This document shows, in pieces, positions 28,809 through 57,395 of a DNA stretch of 64,000 nt. Below the pieces are notes generated by a model, which saw nothing but the letters and a program-made list of their open reading frames with translations, was not told where the DNA came from and did not search any database. Origin of the DNA: Candidatus Harrisonbacteria bacterium (lineage in GTDB: Bacteria; Patescibacteriota; Minisyncoccia; UBA6257; 02-FULL-45-10c); assembly GCA_016214655.1 (NCBI GenBank), contig JACROC010000007.1:14785-78784 (forward strand), written 5' to 3'. A program made the translations under genes and the position numbers. Numbering within the stretch: position 1 is the first letter of the stretch; each line of letters starts with the position of its first letter.

Positions 28809-29609
28809 CTATACTGAAAGTTTCATAACTTTATCAACAAATCTCCACCAATCATCATCTGAAGAAATCACGTCCCAAAAAACCTCCAAGTCCCTTTCCG
28901 TGTATTCCGAAAAGTGCTTTTTGGAAAATCTCTGTCGGCGGTATCGCTGATTAAAGTCGCCCAAAAGAAAATTATACTTCGACTTCGGCCCCTCAATACA
29001 ATTTGATTTCGTAATCGACTCAAGAAATTTTCTCCACCAATCCGAAACTAGAGATACCATACCGCCCCTTAATTCCTTTACCATTTCTTCTGCTAAAATA
29101 GATAATAATTGACGAGATGATTGCGTAAGGCCCTTGCATCCGATATATGCTAAACAAATCGCTGGACGATCATCTTTTAATCGACAACCACCTGGTCCTA
29201 AAAAAACACATTTGCTTCGAGGCTTACCTTCTAAATTTGCCACGCTTTCCTTTGTGTTTTCTGTACACAACCACTCCAAGTCTGGTTCCGGAAATTTGAA
29301 TTTAGGGTTTTTTAAAAGAAGATAAAAGATGTCATGGGCTTTGATCGGCGGATAATTCTGATAACAACATGAACATTCGCCCTCTTGATGTATTTGGGAT
29401 GAGAAGTCGGTCTGTTTAGAAAATATCTCCAAGTGCCTCTTGCGGTAGTTATCTATTCTTTCAATTTCTGGCAGAGGAGGCGGGTTTACTTTTTGAATCA
29501 ATATTCTAGCGAAATCAGCAAATTTATTTAAATTTTCAACGATCTTCCGATAATCAGGCGGATTTGCTTCTAAATACACCCTACCCCCAATCTGCAGATT
29601 TTGAATCAA
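28809..29609 (-). CDS. YkgJ-family (CxxCxxCC-type) putative Zn/Fe-chelating domain protein
   Basis: ECSCCYQNY and CVFLGPGGCRLKDDRPAICLAY match the PF03692-type Cys-cluster pattern. Confidence 0.45.
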   Translation of the reverse strand: MIQNLQIGGRVYLEANPPDYRKIVENLNKFADFARILIQKVNPPPLPEIERIDNYRKRHLEIFSKQTDFSSQIHQEGECSCCYQNYPPIKAHDIFYLLLKNPKFKFPEPDLEWLCTENTKESVANLEGKPRSKCVFLGPGGCRLKDDRPAICLAYIGCKGLTQSSRQLLSILAEEMVKELRGGMVSLVSDWWRKFLESITKSNCIEGPKSKYNFLLGDFNQRYRRQRFSKKHFSEYTERDLEVFWDVISSDDDWWRFVDKVMKLSV

Positions 29610-29640
29610 TATTAATGAAAAAATTAGAAAAAGTCAAATA

Positions 29641-29680
29641 AATCTGGGTCGTCTAGTAAGTGATGTGAGGTCCCGCGCGA
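29641..29680 (+). repeat. cassette-junction repeat, variant 1b
   Basis: aatctgggtcgtctagtaagtgatgtgaggtc; shares tctagt with the tRNA-His end. Confidence 0.55.
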
Positions 29681-29845
29681 ATCTATTTAACGGGCTTATA
29701 AAGTGGAGTTCCTAAAGCCTAATTTTTATCTTGTTGATGCCCTCTACCATTTTTTAATATATATCCTTCAGAAAATAGGTTAAGATTTTCTAGTCAAATC
29801 TTGTGCGATAAAAAATCCGCTCGTTCACGAGCGGATTTGGTTTGG

Positions 29846-30247
29846 CTAACAAGGATTGAAAACTGACCCGGCAATCACTTCTCCGATGGCCATTAAAAGA
29901 AAACCTTCGAAGAAACCTCCTCCAAATATGAAAAAGCTTATTGGAATACCACCAAAAAATAAAATTAATCCTAGAATTCCCATGTATAACCGTATCTGTG
30001 ACGCTGCCTCCGCCAACTTCTTCTGACCAACACAAGCCTTTAGGGCAATCGAATATTTCCAAATCAGTATCATAATAAAAACAGCCAGCGACATAGAAAA
30101 TAAAACAATAACAGTCTCGGCCCAGCTAATAGGCAGAAGGAAAATCAACAGGGCGCCAGCCGGACACACTAGCGTGATTAAAACTGATAAAAAATATAGC
30201 TGTGCTAAATGCTTAGCGGATTTTAGAAATGCTCTCATCGACTTCAT
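29846..30247 (-). CDS. small membrane protein (first cassette next to tRNA-His)
   Basis: real start MKSMRAFL; four TM helices. Confidence 0.5.
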   Translation of the reverse strand: MKSMRAFLKSAKHLAQLYFLSVLITLVCPAGALLIFLLPISWAETVIVLFSMSLAVFIMILIWKYSIALKACVGQKKLAEAASQIRLYMGILGLILFFGGIPISFFIFGGGFFEGFLLMAIGEVIAGSVFNPC

Positions 30248-30265
30248 TTTTGCCCCCCTTTTCAA

Positions 30266-30316
30266 AGAACGTTAACTGCTGATGAATATCATATCAGGAA
30301 ATAAGAATAAAGTTAA
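30266..30316 (-). promoter_or_regulatory. conserved cassette promoter and 5'-UTR module abutting tRNA-His
   Basis: ccctttcaaagaacgttaactgctgatgaatatcatatcagg on + strand, then aaagttaaat and the tRNA 3' end. Confidence 0.6.
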
Positions 30317-30321
30317 ATCTG

Positions 30322-30393
30322 GGTGCCTAGAGAGAATCGAACTCTCGCTACCTCTGCCACAGAGAGGAGTTCTACCATTAAACTATAGGCACC
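30322..30393 (-). tRNA. tRNA-His (GTG), with encoded G-1
   Basis: minus strand G-1 GTGCCTA..CCTCT-CTGTGGC-AGAGG..GAGAG-TTCGATT-CTCTC-TAGGCAC-C; anticodon GTG; G-1:C73. Confidence 0.8.
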
Positions 30394-30483
30394 ATATCTT
30401 TCTGACATCTGACAAATAAGACGCAACACATGACAGATGACTACTAACAATTTACATTTTTTTTTAAAAAAAGTCTAGAAATA

Positions 30484-30510
30484 CGAAAGCCCCAACTGCT
30501 GTTGGGGCCA
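30484..30510 (-). terminator. hairpin terminator after the GC-rich gene
   Basis: agccccaacagcagttggggct plus T-run on minus strand. Confidence 0.45.
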
Positions 30511-30544
30511 CCTGCGAGGACCGCAGGATTTGGAGGGAACTGAG

Positions 30545-30858
30545 TCAGACGACCGCGAGCATCGTGGGGCGATCGGGGATCGCCTTGAAGAAGCCATGGC
30601 CACGGAGGTCCACCCCGTAGTACTTGGCGATCTTCTTGAGCACGCGCCGGCTGACCTTCCGCGGGAAGCGCGCCGCGATCTCATCGCGGACGAACAGTGC
30701 CTGCTCATGGCCGGTGAGCTGCTCCGGCAGCGGCGAGAGCTGCAACCGCACCATGAGCGGCGGCAGCGGCACGATGACGACCGGCTCCTCCACCTTCTTC
30801 CCCTTGGAGATACGAAGGAGATCCAGCAAGCTGCGGCTGATGCTCTTGAGGTTCATGA
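30545..30858 (-). CDS. hypothetical protein in an anomalously GC-rich (about 65%) insert
   Basis: 104 aa from MNLKSISRSLL; strong RBS agagggggtggagtc; palindrome TGAGACAGTAATGTCTCA in its 5' region. Confidence 0.5.
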
Positions 30859-30883
30859 CTCCACCCCCTCTTAACATTCTTGA

Positions 30884-30901
30884 GACATTACTGTCTCACA
30901 T
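30884..30901. promoter_or_regulatory. 6-bp/6-bp palindromic putative operator
   Basis: TGAGACattactGTCTCA between the putative promoter and the RBS of 30545..30858. Confidence 0.4.
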
Positions 30902-30980
30902 CAAAGTACTGATGCCACAATGGATTATTCATCCACCGTAACAATATAAATATAGCATACTTTAATAATTCTGTCAAGTG

Positions 30981-30997
30981 GTCGGACTGCTGGGAAT
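30981..30997 (-). repeat. 17-nt direct repeat of the tRNA-Pro 3' end (att-like)
   Basis: gtcggactgctgggaat identical to 31186-31202 (3' end of tRNA-Pro); the copy continues ..GACCA. Confidence 0.7.
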
Positions 30998-31048
30998 TTC
31001 GCTGCGCTTTTGGCTGGATAGCCCAAAAGCTTGCCGAACCCTTCCGCC

Positions 31049-31125
31049 TCACCCCGACCCCCGCTTAAGACACCTTCGGTTTCTTACGTCGCTTACGCTC
31101 CTATCTTCCTGATACGGGGTGAGGC
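31049..31125. other. long hairpin (10-bp GC stem, 58-nt loop) inside the tRNA-Pro repeat-bounded segment
   Basis: cctcaccccg ... cggggtgagg, followed by a tagttcgattcc T-loop-like sequence. Confidence 0.35.
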
Positions 31126-31186
31126 TAGTTCGATTCCTAAAACAAAAAATAATAAAAACCGAAATTAATTCGGTTTTTATTATTTG

Positions 31187-31257
31187 TCGGACTGCTGGGA
31201 ATCGAACCCAGGCCATATGCTCCCAAAGCATATATACTACCATTATACTACAGTCCG
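31187..31257 (-). tRNA. tRNA-Pro (TGG)
   Basis: CGGACTG acceptor, anticodon loop TTTGGGA, T-arm CTGGG-TTCGATT-CCCAG, discriminator A; terminator aaaaaccgaattaatttcggttttt follows. Confidence 0.8.
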
Positions 31258-31313
31258 AATGTACAAATCGTACTATTTTTAAATCGAAAAATCAAAAGTC
31301 CCGTTTTCCGGGA

Positions 31314-31940
31314 CTAATTATTTAAAAGCTTAATTCCACTCAGCGCAGTCTGAATTGCCAGAAATACAGTAATAGCAGCGAAGACTAAAGATAAAATCGG
31401 ATCGATTAAATTCCAACCCGGTTTTAATATTAAAACCAACCCAGCCAATATCACCACTAACGACTGGCCCAAGTCTACGCCAATATGCCTCATCAGAGCA
31501 GTTTTGGTTATATTCGGCTCTACTATTTTAAAAATGAAAATCATAGATAATCCATTAGCCACAGCCCCGGGAATTGCGAACAGAAGCAATAGGTGACTTT
31601 TAACCGCTATCGGATCAACCATTCTTTCGCCGGCTTCCCTGAAAATCAACGCCGCAGTGGCAAGTAGAATTAAACAACTAATAAAGCTACTGAAAGCCCT
31701 GACTCTCTTTCCGGCGTAATTTTTGGTAGCCACCATCCAAGCAGTCCAAATTGCCAAGAGATGCCCTAAGGAATCTATAAAGACATGAAAGGTATCAGCT
31801 AATAAAGCTACGCTCCCGGAGAGATAGGCGCCGATTAACTGAAAAAAGAAGATCGCTATGCCGATACTAAACGCAATCCAATAAGCTTTCATCTCGCACC
31901 GGCATTCGCCGTTAGAATGACTAAAATGCAGCGGCGACAT
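31314..31940 (-). CDS. cation diffusion facilitator (CDF) family transporter, membrane domain only
   Basis: GSVALLADTFHVFIDSLGH metal-site motif; six TM helices; no cytoplasmic C-terminal domain. Confidence 0.65.
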   Translation of the reverse strand: MSPLHFSHSNGECRCEMKAYWIAFSIGIAIFFFQLIGAYLSGSVALLADTFHVFIDSLGHLLAIWTAWMVATKNYAGKRVRAFSSFISCLILLATAALIFREAGERMVDPIAVKSHLLLLFAIPGAVANGLSMIFIFKIVEPNITKTALMRHIGVDLGQSLVVILAGLVLILKPGWNLIDPILSLVFAAITVFLAIQTALSGIKLLNN

Positions 31941-32019
31941 TGCCCCTCCGCATTTTTCTTGTTATATATTTATTAAAGCTTCTGCTTACATAGTAAAAGA
32001 ATTATAATAAGCAGTCTAT

Positions 32020-32091
32020 GCCCTCGTAGCTTAATGGATAAAGCAGGACTCTTCTAAGGTCTTGATGGGGGTCCGATTCCCTCCGAGGGCA
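32020..32091 (+). tRNA. tRNA-Arg (TCT)
   Basis: GCCCTCG acceptor, anticodon loop CTTCTAA, T-loop TCCGATT, discriminator A; terminator 32104-32136. Confidence 0.75.
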
Positions 32092-32118
32092 CAAAATAAA
32101 AAATAAGGCTCAATCGCC

Positions 32119-32775
32119 TTATTTTTTTGTTTGTTCAGAGACTAACTTTTTGATAACTACTCCAATATCTTTTTGAGATTTCCACATCTCGCGTATTTGG
32201 GCACGCATTTTTTGATGTTGAGGATATCCGATATCTGCCCCTCCGTTCATCAGATCGGAAAATTCAAGATTGAGTAGTTCCGTCAATGATTCCTTGATAT
32301 CGTTGTAAACTAATTTAGAAAGTCCCTTGTCCAACAACTCTTTTCCGAATATATACCAAGTGTAAAAATGCAACAGTTCATGCATTATCGTGTTAGTGGA
32401 AAATTCCGAGCCGATTTTAACAAAAAAATAACTTTTCACGGTATTGTAAGTGCAACGCTCGTTATGCGTCAGATAAATAGTAATAACCGGGACAGTATAA
32501 GAAATCCCAAATATTTTTCCCATTCGTTCAATGAAAATCGGTTCGGCAATTTTCCATCTTTCTTCTATAGCGACAATTTCTTTATTCACGTCAAAGCCGC
32601 TTTCCTTGTCTCGTTCTTGAATAAAAGCTTTGACTTTTTCTGCTTCAAAATTATCGCCGTACTTTTCGGTAAATAAATTTTGAAACTTTGTTGGTTTCTT
32701 GCTGTTTATTGCTTTTGTTCCGTTTATGGTGTTTTCAACATCTTTATCTACGTCGTAAGCAAAATATAATTTCAT
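32119..32775 (-). CDS. HExxH putative metallopeptidase
   Basis: IMHELLHFYTW zinc-binding-like motif; 218 aa; family not assigned. Confidence 0.4.
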   Translation of the reverse strand: MKLYFAYDVDKDVENTINGTKAINSKKPTKFQNLFTEKYGDNFEAEKVKAFIQERDKESGFDVNKEIVAIEERWKIAEPIFIERMGKIFGISYTVPVITIYLTHNERCTYNTVKSYFFVKIGSEFSTNTIMHELLHFYTWYIFGKELLDKGLSKLVYNDIKESLTELLNLEFSDLMNGGADIGYPQHQKMRAQIREMWKSQKDIGVVIKKLVSEQTKK

Positions 32776-32784
32776 AAATTTGTT

Positions 32785-33159
32785 TCAAAATTCTAGCTTT
32801 CTACCTTTGTATTTAAAGGCTTCTTTTAAAAATTTATCTCCGTCTTTTGTGCCGTGTTCAATCATATGACAATTTGCACAAAGCAACATACATTTTTGTA
32901 GCTCAGATTTTATAGAATCCCAGCTTTTATTCGCTACATTGCCAATAGTAAATTCTTTTTCTCGTGGATTCTTGTGATGGAATTGCAATGCCGCTTGATT
33001 GCCACTCCAGTCACATTTTATACATTTATTCCCTAAGTATCTAATCGCGGCTGCCTTAGCTCGAAACCGCCTTATTTTCGTATTACACGATCCGCACCTG
33101 CTTCTTCCCTTTTTTTGATAATCTTTAAATTCATTGCAGCACAATTTACAAATTTCCAT
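32785..33159 (-). CDS. HNH endonuclease with N-terminal zinc ribbon
   Basis: CKLCC..CGSC N-terminal and CIKCDW..HHKNP..N..CANCH HNH core. Confidence 0.65.
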   Translation of the reverse strand: MEICKLCCNEFKDYQKKGRSRCGSCNTKIRRFRAKAAAIRYLGNKCIKCDWSGNQAALQFHHKNPREKEFTIGNVANKSWDSIKSELQKCMLLCANCHMIEHGTKDGDKFLKEAFKYKGRKLEF

Positions 33160-33244
33160 ATATTTCTAGTATAGCATATATTGTTCTACCGAGATAATTA
33201 ATTATTGCAATTCTTTTTATTCTTAGTAATATATTAAATATGAT

Positions 33245-33543
33245 GCCGCGGTAGCTCAGTGGTAGAGCGCAGCCCTAAATTCTTTGGGGCTTTCCATTGT
33301 AAAATGGATTGAAAAATCAGGTGAATTCGGGGAAAACTTTAATCGAGAGATTAAAACAATCCCGAGCCAAGCCGACACACATAATAATTTATGTGCGCGG
33401 AAGGTGTAGAGACTATCCCTTTATGGGAGTAGTCCCGCTCTGCGGGACGAAGCGCCTGACACCCATTAAATAATTGGGTGATGATATAGTCCAAATAGCT
33501 TCGGAAGAGGCTGGCGTCGAGTGTTCGATTCACTCCCGCGGCA
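33245..33543 (+). tRNA. tRNA (probably Phe-GAA) interrupted by a group I intron
   Basis: 5' exon GCCGCGGTAGCTCAGTGGTAGAGCGCAGCCCT; 3' exon GAAGAGGCTGGCGTCGAGTGTTCGATTCACTCCCGCGGCA; acceptor 7/7 bp and anticodon stem CAGCC/GGCTG pair across the insert. Confidence 0.55.
33277..33503 (+). ncRNA. group I intron (about 227 nt) in tRNA anticodon loop
   Basis: P1: exon AGCCCU pairs with internal guide GGGGCU with U.G at the splice site; GGAAGGTGTAGAGACTA and GATATAGTCCAAAT resemble the P3/P7 core of cyanobacterial tRNA-Leu introns; intron ends in G. Confidence 0.5.
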
Positions 33544-33572
33544 CACTTGACAAAATAAATATAGTATGCTAT
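33544..33572 (+). promoter_or_regulatory. consensus sigma70-type promoter
   Basis: TTGACA-17 nt-TATATT directly after the intron-containing tRNA, pointing into the GC-rich region. Confidence 0.45.
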
Positions 33573-33589
33573 ATTATATTTTATACGCT

Positions 33590-34210
33590 GTAGAACCTTG
33601 AAAACAACCAAACCTACCAATTTCCGGCCTCCGGCCACCCTAAATAAGGGTCGCCTGGTGCCGGGAGACGAGACGTGCATCCCCGAAGTGCTTCGATGAG
33701 GAGGCGCCAATGCACTGGCCGTAGCGCTGCCCCTTCCCAGAATGCTGGGGTGGCTAAAAACTGCTTCGGGTGGGAAGGGAGCCTGCTAAACACGAGGAAA
33801 AACCTTGTGTGGGAGGAAAAATGGACTGGCCCTAGTAAGGCCTAAGTAAAAAATGCCAGCCTATAACTCGGCTGGCACCCTTTGACTGAAAATCAACAGC
33901 CGACGGAGGATACTTGCGCCAACCAAGAATCACGGAAGAATGGGACCTGCGGGTCATCGATGATCCCCAATTCCTCTGCGTTCCGAGAGAAGAATTGGAA
34001 GACGAGGAACTGGGAGCGCGAAACCAACGGCAACCGCAGGACTATATCCCCCTTGAGTTGATCTCTGGGGAGAATATCGATGGATGCTGCCGCTGGCTAG
34101 TCTCGGACAACGCCCGGTACGGAGCGCGGGATCCACTGGAGATCCTACTTCGGAGAGAAGCGCGCCGCGAAAGAAGGAAACAGAAGCAACACCGTCCATA
34201 ACTCCTGCTT
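33590..34210 (+). other. GC-rich (about 57%) noncoding-looking region; candidate large structured RNA or foreign insert
   Basis: GC content far above flanks; many local stems (ccggcctccggcc, cccag/ctggg); only weak ORFs (33914..34201 lacks an RBS). Confidence 0.3.
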
Positions 34211-34215
34211 AGAAT

Positions 34216-34298
34216 GGGCTGGTGGCGGAATGGCAGACGCGGGGGACTTAAAATCCCCTGTCCGTAGGGACATATGGGTTCGACTCCCATCCTGCCCA
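34216..34298 (+). tRNA. tRNA-Leu (TAA)
   Basis: anticodon stem GGGGA/TCCCC, loop CTTAAAA, long variable arm TGTCCGTAGGGACAT, T-loop TTCGACT; one U-U mismatch in the acceptor stem. Confidence 0.7.
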
Positions 34299-34380
34299 TT
34301 GTAGGCAGAAACGATCAGCGGCTGATCTAAAATGCCGAACCCCGACAGAAATGTCGGGGTCATTTTTTATGAGATTATTA

Positions 34381-34980
34381 TTAAGATGAGTTTCGGACTA
34401 AATCGTCAAAAAGTTTCATTTTTTGGTTATATAAATCATTTAATTTATTAATCTCTTTAGTCTCTCCGTTCATTGTTTCTATTAATGCCTGAACGCTGGT
34501 ATTGTCTTTAAGATCCCCGGAAAATTTCAAAACCAGGGTTTGAAGCAAGCTGTTAAGAACATCATTATAGACTATCAGATGAGTTATAAGCGATACCTCG
34601 TGGCCAACCGCTTCCATTACAACATTTCTCGCTTTTACCGGTTTAATACCGGCCGCCGAGCGGGCCATCTTATCTAATTCGGCGGTAAGGCTGATAGCTT
34701 TTTTCCGGGATTCTTGGGCTTGATCAAGTTCTGCCCTAACCAATTCCAATGCCTTGTTAAATCGGTTACGCCGATCTGCCTCGGAAATTTCACTCAATCT
34801 AGCAAGAGATTCTTCCGCGGATTTTACAATATCCTTAGCAATTAATGCCCCCTGCCTTCTGGCCTCTGTAAAATTATCCGGCACAAAACCTATGCCGATC
34901 AAATAATAACCGGTAAAATAAAACGCTACAATAAGAAGCGCCAATGTGACTGTTCTTTTCATACTCTTTCTTAAAGTCAT
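34381..34980 (-). CDS. membrane-anchored coiled-coil protein
   Basis: N-terminal TM then charged helical region. Confidence 0.45.
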   Translation of the reverse strand: MTLRKSMKRTVTLALLIVAFYFTGYYLIGIGFVPDNFTEARRQGALIAKDIVKSAEESLARLSEISEADRRNRFNKALELVRAELDQAQESRKKAISLTAELDKMARSAAGIKPVKARNVVMEAVGHEVSLITHLIVYNDVLNSLLQTLVLKFSGDLKDNTSVQALIETMNGETKEINKLNDLYNQKMKLFDDLVRNSS

Positions 34981-35069
34981 TTAATCCATTATAAGCCCGG
35001 AAAAGGGGTTTTGAAAAGGCCTTTATTTATTAAAAAATTTTGGATATAATAAATTCTAATCTCACAAAA

Positions 35070-35144
35070 GCGGGTATCGTATAGCGGCTATTATGTCACC
35101 CTTCCAAGGTGAAGATGCGGGTTCGACTCCCGCTACCCGCTCCA
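35070..35144 (+). tRNA. tRNA-Gly (TCC), CCA encoded
   Basis: GCGGGTA acceptor, anticodon stem TCACC/GGTGA with loop CTTCCAA, T-arm GCGGG-TTCGACT-CCCGC, ends TCCA. Confidence 0.8.
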
Positions 35145-35164
35145 GCTAATCAATTTTAATAATT

Positions 35165-35446
35165 ATGGCTAACGACAAACTCCATAGAAAATCAATAACT
35201 GCTGTATTCTTTTTGATGGCAGCTGGAATTTCCCTATTTCTCTATACTCCGAAAAGAAATTCTGGCGGCTTTGTTGAAGAAGCGCGGCCAAAAGCCAACC
35301 TAGCCAACATCCAAGAACAGCTGCAGGGGCCAGCTTCTCCGGCCCTCGAGGGATTCAAGAATCTATCAAAAGAAGCCGAGGGTGTATATTCAGAAACAAC
35401 GGAAACCGGAAGCCCAGCCGACCAACTCTTGCCTCAGGTAGAATAA
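35165..35446 (+). CDS. small secreted/TM protein
   Basis: 93 aa with N-terminal TM; terminator 35472-35500. Confidence 0.4.
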   Translation: MANDKLHRKSITAVFFLMAAGISLFLYTPKRNSGGFVEEARPKANLANIQEQLQGPASPALEGFKNLSKEAEGVYSETTETGSPADQLLPQVE

Positions 35447-35548
35447 TCTTGTATAATATATAAAAATATGGAAATCCGTGCCAAATCTGGTACGGATTTT
35501 AAATTTTATCATTATAGTGAGATATAATGGTAATAGAGGACGGGAAAA

Positions 35549-36166
35549 ATGTGGCATGAAATAGATTCTCCCGTCATTCGTTCTATTATGTTAGAAGAGG
35601 AAAAAAAACATATTCAGCGGGCAAAGGGGGGAAATAAAGAGGCTTTTGGGCTTCTTTATGACCATTACTTGCCTAAAATATACAGGTTTATATTCTTGAA
35701 AGTGGCTAATCGGGCAGAGGCTGAAGATCTGGCGCATGAGGTGTTTTTAAATGCCTGGCAAAGTATCTATCGGTATAAAGACGAAGGATTCCCTTTTTCC
35801 AGCTGGCTCTATCAAATAGCCAAAAACGGCGTTATAGATTTTTACCGGACATCCAAAAAAAATATCCAATTGGAGGCCGTTAATGAAGAGTTGGTAAAAA
35901 TCAATGCTAATTATCCGGAAAATCTGGAAACGGCGCTGGCACTGGAAAAATTACAAAAAATCATTCGCCTGCTTAAACCAGAATACCAAGATGTTCTGAT
36001 AATGAGATTTGTGGAAGATATGTCGCATGAAGAAATTGCCGCTATCCTCAATAAAAGCGAGGGGGCGGTGCGGCTAATACAGCATCGTGCATTAAAAGAA
36101 TTAAAGTCTTTATACGAAAAAAATAGCCAATTAAACGACTATGGAACAACTACTCTCGAGGCTTAA
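35549..36166 (+). CDS. RNA polymerase sigma-70 family (ECF-type) sigma factor
   Basis: region 2 (DLAHEVFLNAW) and region 4 HTH (MSHEEIAAILNKSEGAVRLIQHRALKEL). Confidence 0.7.
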   Translation: MWHEIDSPVIRSIMLEEEKKHIQRAKGGNKEAFGLLYDHYLPKIYRFIFLKVANRAEAEDLAHEVFLNAWQSIYRYKDEGFPFSSWLYQIAKNGVIDFYRTSKKNIQLEAVNEELVKINANYPENLETALALEKLQKIIRLLKPEYQDVLIMRFVEDMSHEEIAAILNKSEGAVRLIQHRALKELKSLYEKNSQLNDYGTTTLEA

Positions 36167-36563
36167 GGCCATCGAACCAAATAAGGAATATCGAGAACGC
36201 TCACGGGTGCTAATTTTAAATTCCCAGCAAATTAGCTATCCGACTTTCTTTAATAGGATTTTGGATACCATTCAATATGGCGCCGCTTATAGCTTGGCGA
36301 TAATATTTATTTTCCTGCTAGTCGGAGGATTATCAATGTTTAGCCGCGGAATTTACTCTCCCGCCGTCATTTCCAACCTCGATCCTCAGACGCTAAAGGA
36401 GGAATCTGAAAATTTCGACATCCAAATTCAGCTTTCGCAGGCAGAATATTACGAAAACTCGGCAAAAACGATTGAAATTGCTCTGAATGCCACTTCCGAT
36501 GAAATTAAAACAAATAATGATAAAGAAAGGCTGGACGAACTCCTAAAAGAACTAACCCTATGA
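36141..36563 (+). CDS. putative anti-sigma factor (single-pass membrane protein)
   Basis: overlaps the sigma gene by 26 nt; one TM helix. Confidence 0.4.
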   Translation: MEQLLSRLKAIEPNKEYRERSRVLILNSQQISYPTFFNRILDTIQYGAAYSLAIIFIFLLVGGLSMFSRGIYSPAVISNLDPQTLKEESENFDIQIQLSQAEYYENSAKTIEIALNATSDEIKTNNDKERLDELLKELTL

Positions 36564-56939: not shown

Positions 56940-57309
56940 GGGGATGAAAAGCTTCGACAATTTATTTTCTGTCAGGTTCGCAAGCTGAGCTGAATTAACT
57001 CGTAAAACTAATTCAAAATTATAAGTGCAAACTTATTCAATCGTCAGCCAGCTTACGCTTTAGCGTAATTTATCCCGGCCTTAGCGTCGGGACTGGCCAT
57101 CGATCAGCCAAAGCTTGATAGGCTGCCAATCGGTGTCATACATCAAGCTCTGCCTTGATAAACCGAGTATCAAAGCGAATTGCAATCGGTAAAGAGAATA
57201 GCGTATTTTGTTAGATCTAAACGTTATTCTCTATAAATTTAATCTAACTAAGCTTGTAGAAAATTTGGCGGGTATAATTTGGACGCGGATGCAATTTCCG
57301 CCATCTCCA
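56940..57309 (+). ncRNA. ssrA: tmRNA (SsrA)
   Basis: 5' GGGGATGAAAAGCTTCGAC (consensus GGGG.UGA..GGAUUCGAC); 3' GGACGCGGATGCAATTTCCGCCATCTCCAC (E. coli GGACGCGGGUUCAACUCCCGCCAGCUCCACCA); acceptor GGGGATG pairs with CATCTCC; tag ORF 57027-57068 GCA.. = ANLFNRQPAYALA stop. Confidence 0.7.
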
Positions 57310-57395
57310 CAAATAAAAAAGACGGTCCCATAACCGCCCATAACTTTTCTGCCTGACTATCAAACTAAAATTTACCTCTACAAAAATCATTAGAA

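Follow-up and report, generated by a model that had tools for sequence, protein, structure and literature searches.

A group I intron in a Patescibacteria tRNA-Phe(GAA) gene and a neighbouring HNH endonuclease-family gene: two neighbours with, on the best reading, separate histories

When a gene for an HNH endonuclease-family protein lies beside a tRNA gene that is split by a group I intron, is the protein the homing enzyme of that intron, or do the two have separate histories? The question arises in a stretch of 64,000 nucleotides from a Candidatus Harrisonbacteria contig (JACROC010000007.1; this whole 64-kb stretch is called the window below). Here, a group I intron sits in the anticodon loop of tRNA-Phe(GAA), between U33 and G34, and an HNH gene reads divergently from the same locus. 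The best reading is that the intron and the HNH cassette are two neighbours with separate histories. We consider it probable (roughly 0.85) that a functional tRNA-Phe(GAA) is split at U33/G34 by a self-splicing group I intron of a Patescibacteria family that lacks an open reading frame (ORF), and that the divergent HNH gene is a separate, free-standing cassette resembling homing endonuclease genes. The window has the sequence character of a chromosome of the Patescibacteria (Candidate Phyla Radiation, CPR), with about 40% G+C, small genes, a transfer-messenger RNA (tmRNA) and scattered tRNA genes. Outside the locus its matches at the DNA level are few, and are to Harrisonbacteria and other Parcubacteria-type metagenome-assembled genomes (MAGs).

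The features of the locus are listed in Table 1. A first reading of this DNA from its letters (the sequence-only reading) had proposed a tRNA gene carrying an insert of about 227 nt, a P1 helix in which AGCCCU pairs with GGGGCU and ends in a U.G pair, a G as the last intron nucleotide, and exons that join into an anticodon loop CUGAAGA with anticodon GAA (Phe). Each of these proposals was confirmed. The covariance model Rfam RF00028 (Intron_gpI) finds a group I core at 33267-33513, with 92.1 bits (gathering score 50) and E = 2.4e-22, over model positions 1-253 (full length). ARAGORN called no tRNA at 33245-33543 in the unspliced window and identified tRNA-Phe(GAA) after in-silico excision of 33277-33503. 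The spliced 72-mer forms a perfect cloverleaf (minimum free energy, MFE, -32.8 kcal/mol) with anticodon GAA and discriminator base A73; CCA is not encoded. An identical exon layout is present in at least 103 other loci. The junction of 33276 with 33504 is the only one tried that combines U at position -1, the terminal intron G (omega-G) and a 7-nt anticodon loop. Other junctions within +/-7 nt were rejected, because they give a non-standard loop or lack either the U at -1 or the omega-G.

The elements that would guide splicing were compared in an alignment of 106 distinct introns, drawn from species-level genome loci and metagenome loci and including that of the window. P1 has at least 4 bp and the U.G pair in 106/106 introns, and P10 has at least 4 bp in 105/106. 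Both helices covary with the exons. In P1, the exon sequences CCCU, GCCU and GACU are matched by the guides GGGG, GGGC and GGUC, respectively. In P10, genes with A37 (exon GAAAAU) carry intron AUUUUC and the others carry NUCUUY.

Bacterial tRNA-Phe usually has A37, and G37 is unusual. The G37 of the joined exons had raised the suspicion, in the sequence-only reading, that the junction is misplaced by 1 nt. Comparison with intronless alleles of relatives refutes this. In intronless tRNA-Phe genes of the clade, the loop is CUGAAGA in all 42 cases that adjoin HNH relatives, and in all nine that were reached via an unrelated neighbouring gene. G37 is found in 96 of 104 split tRNA-Phe genes (few have A37) and in 51/51 intronless ones. 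Thus, the compensatory change in P10, together with the CUGAAGA loop of intronless genes, fixes the 3' junction and indicates that G37 is genuine. As the norm of the clade, G37 suggests a different modification at position 37, perhaps m1G.

These data also bear on whether the split gene could be non-functional, a dead tRNA whose intron does not splice, or has a true junction shifted by one or two nucleotides. The absence of an ARAGORN call on the unspliced gene would fit such a view, as would the rarity of G37 in bacterial tRNA-Phe generally. However, P1, P10 and omega-G are in register, other junctions lead to non-standard loops, and G37 is the norm of intronless genes in this clade. The window's intron shares all positions that are invariant in the 106 introns (by construction), and ARAGORN found no second tRNA-Phe elsewhere in the 64-kb window. 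We therefore regard a dead tRNA or a shifted junction as extremely unlikely.

The fold of the intron was derived from the alignment. RNAalifold recovered P1, P2, P3, P4, P5 and P6, and 24 of the 42 predicted pairs show compensatory changes. The P7 and P8 pairings come from inspection of the sequence and the alignment; the P7-P3 pseudoknot kept P7 out of the covariation scoring. As is usual, P3 and P7 of the window's intron form a pseudoknot. The core segments GGAAGGTGTAGAGACTA and GATATAGTCC are present and are invariant or nearly so across the 106 introns, as are the J6/7-P7 block AAGGUGUAGAGACUA and the J8/7-P7 block GAUAUAGUCC (near-invariant). The most conserved stretch of the family is the AAGGUGUAGAGACUAU block (33401-33416), in which 11 of 16 positions are invariant and a further three are at least 90% conserved. 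The gap from P7 to P3 measures 36 nt (33417-33452) and folds as two hairpins, P7.1 and P7.2. This form is common to about 30 family members, with differing helix sequences, and the remainder have a single conserved element, GAGUGAGUCCCAACAAUAAUCUCGC.

A tail-exon helix replaces the P9 hairpin in this family. The tail of the window's intron (33492-33503) includes UAGCU, a copy of the 5' strand of the anticodon stem (CAGCC), and can pair with exon positions 39-43 (33509-33513). The helix is present in 75 of 104 introns, compared with 18% of mismatched controls, and it covaries with the stem; in 58 introns it ends 2 nt before omega-G. An added P9-like hairpin was seen in five introns (L122, L125, L132, L181 and L199).

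The sequence-only reading had likened the core to that of the cyanobacterial tRNA-Leu introns. The resemblance in sequence stands, as the Anabaena tRNA-Leu intron has a similar J6/7-P7, GGAAGGUGCAGAGACUC, and J8/7-P7, GAGAGAGUCCAAUU (Table S4, PMC13011429). The cyanobacterial tRNA-Leu(UAA) and Azoarcus tRNA-Ile introns, which belong to subgroup IC3, are also small and ORF-less, lie in the anticodon loop and form P1 from the anticodon stem. The subgroup, by contrast, is a different one. The IC3 introns are inserted at 34/35 (Leu) or 36/37 (Ile) rather than at 33/34, and their P7 runs straight into P3, whereas the window's intron has P7.1 and P7.2 in between. The window's intron also differs from them in having no P9 hairpin. 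In the published survey, nearly all Patescibacteria tRNA introns are placed in IA and none in IC (Nakagawa et al. 2026, PMC13011429). The presence of P7.1 and P7.2 between P7 and P3, with the survey's placement of none in IC, rules out IC3, and we describe the intron as IA-like; the IA label rests on the statement of the survey, and the extra helices are observed.

We propose a course of splicing that would follow from this fold. Transcription of the precursor would start at a promoter within the 85-nt spacer between the HNH and tRNA genes, and the intron would fold into P3-P8 and P4-P6 domains. The 5' strand of the anticodon stem, with C32 and U33, would pair with the guide GGGGCU to form P1, and exogenous guanosine would attack after U33. 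The guide UUCUUU would hold the 3' exon GAAGAG in P10. The 3' tail of the intron may pair with the 3' strand of the anticodon stem, and could in this way keep the 3' exon in place for as long as P1 occupies the genuine 5' strand. Omega-G33503 would enter the G-binding site and the exons would be ligated. The predicted product is a 72-nt tRNA with loop CUGAAGA and the junction ...CAGCCCU followed by GAAGAGGCUG, to which CCA would be added later.

The intron class is already published. A tRNA-Phe(GAA) 33/34 intron was reported for Doudnabacteria GCA_016699995.1 (Nakagawa et al. 2026, mSystems, PMC13011429). In that study, one of 95 complete Patescibacteria genomes had a tRNA-Phe 33/34 intron (PMC13011429). 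The types of split bacterial tRNA had been extended to 21 by Williams (bioRxiv 2020). The Doudnabacteria intron and that of the window interrupt the same tRNA at the same 33/34 site, give the same CUGAAGA loop, lack an ORF and are of similar length (211 nt vs 227 nt), and the conserved blocks AAUCCCGAGCCAAGCC, GGAAGGUGUAGAGACUA and GAUGAUAUAGUCCAAA are common to both. They differ in the P7.1/P7.2 region, where the Doudnabacteria intron has the common form GUAGGUGAGCCCAACAAUAAUCCUAC and the window has UCCC..GGGA and a second hairpin.

What is new here is the frequency of the intron. Related introns were collected by a pattern scan with one genome per species, which gave at least 119 loci. We identified tRNA-Phe(GAA) split exactly at 33/34 in at least 103 further species-level genomes, rather than in one complete genome. 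Almost all of these are Patescibacteria MAGs; the genome of the window itself was absent from the recovered loci. Of the 119 pattern matches listed, 16 gave no clear tRNA-Phe assignment (Neobacillus L009 and Gammaproteobacteria L020 and L068 are examples). A few tRNA-Phe 33/34 introns in loci L001-L119, such as those of L013 and L018, have lengths of 330-404 nt. This is too short for an endonuclease ORF, and thus points to extra RNA insertions in those introns. The intron itself adds little biology beyond the 2026 survey. It does matter for annotation, as standard tRNA finders overlook the split gene. A genome in which this happens will seem to be without tRNA-Phe, an artefact that recurs among genomes of the Patescibacteria.

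The HNH gene is where the sequence-only reading placed it, with 124 codons, 85 nt upstream of the tRNA and on the opposite strand. The predicted protein has an N-terminal C4 zinc ribbon (C4, C7, C22, C25), followed by the HNH core residues C46, C49, H61 H62, N77/N96, C94, C97, H98 and H102, in the pattern CxxC...FHH...N...CxxCH...H. In 15 HNH sequences, H61, H62, N96, H98, H102 and the CxxC pairs are invariant. The ORF matches PHROG HNH families with E = 2.3e-23 and 5e-19. Comparison of the HNH profile with solved structures gave marginal matches only (McrA, E = 0.03), and a search for the exact sequence of the window's protein matched no public contig.

The pair of genes had been taken in the sequence-only reading for an intron-associated homing endonuclease arrangement. 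The distribution of the two features does not support this. We searched metagenome contigs with the HNH alignment and kept the 80 loci most similar to the window's protein. These comprise 42 loci with an intronless tRNA-Phe, 26 with a complete intron, five on contigs that end inside the intron, one without a visible tRNA and six too short to classify. In all 73 classifiable loci the HNH gene is divergent and lies 83-153 nt upstream of tRNA-Phe. Since 42 of these tRNA genes are intronless and 31 bear the intron, the conserved partner of the HNH gene is the tRNA-Phe gene. Viewed from the intron, upstream sequence was sufficient at 92 intron-bearing loci, and a full-length HNH homologue (64-86% identity) is present at only 13 of them; all 13 genes are divergent and lie at the same place, about 90 nt away from the 5' end of the tRNA.

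An unbiased sample was anchored on a small membrane-protein gene that often precedes the tRNA, and ten diverse members were looked up. Six loci have neither feature, three have the HNH gene only and one has the intron only; the 3/3 HNH-positive loci are intronless and the sole intron-bearing locus is without HNH. All four combinations of HNH and intron occur when the window is counted. The 42% intron frequency beside HNH genes was considered as an enrichment and rejected. The figure is inflated because the scan favoured proteins most similar to that of the window, and the neighbour-anchored sample has no enrichment. The HNH gene shows no sign of a preference for split alleles in this small sample of ten independent points. 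The most useful result is therefore negative, in that the adjoining HNH gene should not be taken for the homing enzyme of the intron.

Collaborative (trans) homing is an established pathway (PMC3984707) by which a free-standing endonuclease could nevertheless spread an intron. It is known for T4 mobE with the nrdB intron (PMC2790892; review PMC3984707). In a version that follows phage mobE/I-TevIII or the cyanophage psbA intron, the HNH protein would cut an intronless tRNA-Phe near 33/34, the intron would protect the locus, and repair would copy both. Several observations are compatible with this. The HNH protein is homologous to an HNH protein inside a tRNA-Asn intron (46% over 74 aa). The gene and the intron are at most 120 bp apart, so any gene conversion would carry both. 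Finally, 31/73 close HNH relatives flank an intron that occurs in 1/95 complete Patescibacteria genomes. However, the last comparison suffers from the selection of query-like proteins described above, and only 13/92 intron-bearing loci have the HNH gene.

Collaborative homing presupposes a target that is interrupted by the intron. The many intronless alleles with an HNH gene speak against this, as a site-directed nuclease would cut its own genome at the 42/73 HNH-positive loci with an uninterrupted CUGAAGA tRNA-Phe. The endonuclease target at the intron insertion site, which defines known systems of this type, is not indicated here. In the neighbour-anchored sample the three HNH-positive loci are intronless and the lone intron locus is without HNH. 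The nearest HNH neighbour is in the same intron state for 80 of 86 loci. No recent gain or loss of the intron was found between near-identical HNH-positive loci, the closest pair that differs in state being just 86% identical (protein). That the intron state tracks HNH similarity points to a few old gains or losses. Taken together, this makes collaborative homing very unlikely. The anticodon-stem sequences of intronless and split HNH-positive alleles, compared for a difference in target site, differ mostly by lineage, with three sequence types in common, and so do not speak for either view. Co-conversion of the nearby intron during homing of the HNH gene itself is possible, and has no support here.

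The HNH gene shows a presence/absence polymorphism of its own. Two loci that share one syntenic context, the HNH-positive L005 and the HNH-negative L027 (73% nucleotide identity in the upstream gene and 88.5% in the split tRNA), differ by presence or absence of the cassette, with about 451 nt in L005 where L027 has about 54 nt. Filled sites (L285, L289, L297) and empty sites (L280, L281, L296 and others) are otherwise collinear. In empty sites the tRNA starts 3-25 nt past the stop codon of the neighbouring gene, except in L284 and L294, where the distance is about 90-105 nt. Where a site is filled, the cassette supplies the ORF with its own promoter and also a candidate promoter for the tRNA. 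The homology that the window shares with other loci is bounded exactly by the HNH stop codon and the tRNA 3' end. The picture that emerges is of a cassette of about 450 bp that lies directly 5' of tRNA-Phe in a subset of Patescibacteria, whether or not the tRNA has an intron. The spacers of L284 (1865-1969) and L294 (1859-1946), which are HNH-free and intronless, hold a degenerated direct repeat of the 5' half of the tRNA (for example, GCCGAGGTAaCTCAac...GTAGAGtG..CTGAAaG). It may be the scar of past recombination at tRNA-Phe.

The protein has relatives that are encoded in tRNA introns and in phages. Over 74 aa it shares 46% identity (E = 1e-15) with an HNH protein encoded inside a Patescibacteria tRNA-Asn intron, and this homology implies that the family includes intron-borne homing endonucleases. 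The HNH proteins of tRNA-Asn(GUU) 35/36 introns (PF01844; Nakagawa et al. 2026) share the HNH core (41-52% identity over 75 aa), and both types have TATACT at a distance of 7-8 nt upstream of the start codon. However, those genes are inside the intron, whereas the window's gene is free-standing, on the opposite strand and outside the tRNA gene. The window's protein also has the additional N-terminal C4 zinc ribbon, and genes of its type accompany intronless tRNA genes as often as split ones. The survey (Nakagawa et al. 2026) has no discussion of a neighbouring HNH gene.

Relatives from phages (36-57% identity) are no more than 300 nt away from a tRNA gene in 59/80 loci, and the phage HNH loci (L200-L279) have a mean of 5.8 tRNA genes per 6-kb locus. 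They are embedded in tRNA arrays; the nearby tRNA gene is most often tRNA-Asn, usually on the same strand. A comparable case is T4 SegB, a free-standing endonuclease gene in the intergenic space between tRNA-Arg and tRNA-Ile (PMC2988022). Endonucleases of phage tRNA clusters also resemble the window's gene in their presence/absence polymorphism between related genomes. Unlike SegB, which is a GIY-YIG enzyme of a phage, the window encodes a predicted nuclease of the HNH family on a cellular, Patescibacteria-type chromosome, with a strict one-to-one link to tRNA-Phe. The tRNA-Phe-linked HNH cassette is thus a modest new observation within a known theme.

The HNH gene is under strong purifying selection, judging from its homologues, of which 89/93 are intact ORFs of exactly 124 codons, with a median ratio of nonsynonymous to synonymous substitution rates (dN/dS) of 0.10. 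This conservation makes a host role a serious alternative. The gene could be domesticated or otherwise beneficial to the host (as a regulator or nuclease at the tRNA-Phe locus, or as a nuclease against foreign DNA), passed down together with the tRNA by vertical descent within a single Patescibacteria lineage, with repeated losses. In keeping with this, no decayed HNH copies were found in 90 HNH-negative loci, the position, orientation and promoter module are fixed, and about 30/81 HNH-positive loci have the same small membrane-protein neighbour. However, an endonuclease that still homes is also expected to be under purifying selection. The patchy presence of HNH within conserved synteny, the occurrence of all four HNH/intron combinations and the empty sites of 3-25 nt also speak against domestication. 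The window's cassette is in a different context, with homology that stops at its borders, and its relatives are typical free-standing phage HNH genes in tRNA clusters. On balance, a domesticated HNH gene seems unlikely.

The divergent spacer suggests how the HNH gene may be expressed. An HNH promoter module, GGTAGA(G/A)C, 4 nt, (T)RTGYTATACT, 6-8 nt, ATG, is present in 74/87 HNH-positive loci, where about one is expected by chance. With the extended -10 element so near the start codon, the HNH mRNA must be nearly leaderless. The 8-mer of this module in the window is about 100 bp from the matching tRNA-Phe positions 18-25 and in inverted orientation. The operators through which T4 intron endonucleases repress their own promoters are similar to the homing sites of these enzymes (Edgell et al. 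2010, PMC2988022). By analogy, we conjecture that the 8-mer at 33183-33190 could be an operator for the HNH protein.

Extending this analogy, the cassette could be an active, tRNA-Phe-specific homing endonuclease. Such a protein would recognise the D-arm DNA GGTAGAGC, repress itself via the promoter 8-mer, cut HNH-free loci and occasionally co-convert the intron. We think this unlikely. If true, tRNA introns that appear immobile would gain a horizontal route that is missed by a survey counting only intron-encoded endonucleases. The strict pairing of HNH with tRNA-Phe and the copy of the D arm in the promoter bear on the joint travel of endonuclease and tRNA genes, in phages and in reduced genomes.

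Our preferred reading, of a self-splicing intron and a separate HNH cassette, draws on observed sequence, structure, covariation and comparative distribution. Several points weigh against it. In vitro self-splicing was shown for related 35/36 introns of tRNA-Asn and tRNA-Asp (PMC13011429), and the published assays used 35/36 introns, not the Phe 33/34 type. For the window, we infer splicing in vivo, and likewise the nuclease activity of the HNH protein and any mobility of its gene, from sequence. The Pfam HNH family PF01844 scores 16.8 bits with the protein, under its cut-off of 21.4, and an NCBIfam search of the protein gave no match. Purifying selection and the tracking of intron state by HNH similarity are also compatible with a domesticated gene that has long been inherited vertically, in place of an active selfish element.

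Table 1. Features of the split tRNA-Phe gene, its intron and the adjoining genes (positions in the window).
Feature	Position	Strand	Details
tRNA-Phe 5' exon	33245..33276	+	tRNA positions 1-33, position 17 absent; acceptor 5' strand, D arm, CAGCC, C32 U33
Group I intron	33277..33503	+	227 nt, ORF-less, omega-G at 33503; Rfam RF00028 and 106-intron alignment
P1/P10 guide region	33271..33291	+	P1: exon AGCCCU (33271-33276) with GGGGCU (33286-33291); U33.G33286 wobble at 5' splice site
P10 strand UUCUUU	33280-33285	+	pairs with exon GAAGAG (33504-33509)
P2 hairpin	33293..33308	+	UCCAUU-GUAA-AAUGGA, GNRA loop; compensatory changes in 35 to 63 of 106 sequences per pair
P3 5' strand UCAGGUG	33317..33323	+	pairs with 33453-33459; alignment columns 65-71 with 245-251; three pairs with compensatory changes
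P4	33326-33332 with 33360-33366	+	encloses P5; whole unit 33326..33366; RNAalifold and window fold
P5 hairpin	33337-33356	+	GAGA loop; no P5abc extension
P6/P6a hairpin	33372..33400	+	compensatory changes at 7/7 pairs
J6/7 and P7 5' strand, AAGGUGUAGAGACUAU	33401..33416	+	GACUAU pairs with AUAGUC 33486-33491
P7.1 hairpin	33416-33428	+	-4.9 kcal/mol; between P7 and P3
P7.2 hairpin	33432-33448	+	-11.6 kcal/mol; between P7 and P3
P3 3' strand CGCCUGA	33453..33459	+	RNAalifold covariation
P8 hairpin CACCCA...UGGGUG	33460..33480	+	pairing kept while helix sequences vary among members
P7 3' strand AUAGUC and 12-nt 3' tail CAAAUAGCUUCG	33486..33503	+	AUAGUC at 33486-33491; no P9 hairpin
tRNA-Phe 3' exon	33504..33543	+	G34 A35 A36 G37 A38, GGCUG anticodon-stem 3' strand, variable loop, T arm, acceptor 3' strand
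HNH endonuclease-family gene, free-standing	32785..33159	-	124 aa; start codon 85 nt from tRNA 5' end; PHROG
Divergent intergenic spacer	33160..33244		85 nt; HNH promoter module on -, tRNA promoter candidate on +
HNH extended -10 TATGCTATACT	33168-33178	-	conserved module
8-mer GGTAGAAC	33183-33190	-	precedes -10; nearly identical to tRNA-Phe positions 18-25
tRNA promoter candidate	33205-33210, 33227-33232	+	TTGCAA, 16 nt, TAATAT; below consensus-scan threshold; rests on conserved position
HELLH ORF	32119..32775	-	218 aa; start codon 9 nt from HNH stop codon

Next to the HNH gene is an ORF with an HExxH motif (HELLH). The sequence-only reading had included it in the arrangement. Its adjacency stands and its part in the arrangement does not, since tblastn found no homologue in the 119 related loci searched, and it is not conserved beside the HNH gene elsewhere. 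Searches of Pfam, PHROG and NCBIfam gave no family match for this ORF. Without a family match or a homologue in related loci, it is simply the next gene, and we excluded it from the system.

Directly after the tRNA-Phe gene, within 33547-34214 (+), is a strong promoter match of TTGACA, 17 nt and TATATT, with TG (11/12). After it comes a GC-rich stretch of about 640 nt (up to 63% in a 40% genome), reaching to tRNA-Leu(UAA), that has no convincing ORF and an MFE z-score of -3.7. The stretch could represent a structured leader or some unknown RNA. A second GC-rich island, at 30393-31186 (-), reaches 69% G+C and lies between tRNA-His and tRNA-Pro. Its promoter motif, TATGCTATAT, is the same as that at the first island. 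A Rfam search of 29500-36500 at E <= 1 found nothing in either island. The second island contains a 110-aa ORF (30545..30877, -) with a GGAG ribosome-binding site and no Pfam or PHROG match, and part of it is 76% identical over 122 nt to a Harrisonbacteria MAG (L036). The tmRNA gene of the window, at 56940-57312 (+), is of the standard one-piece type (Rfam 125.5 bits).

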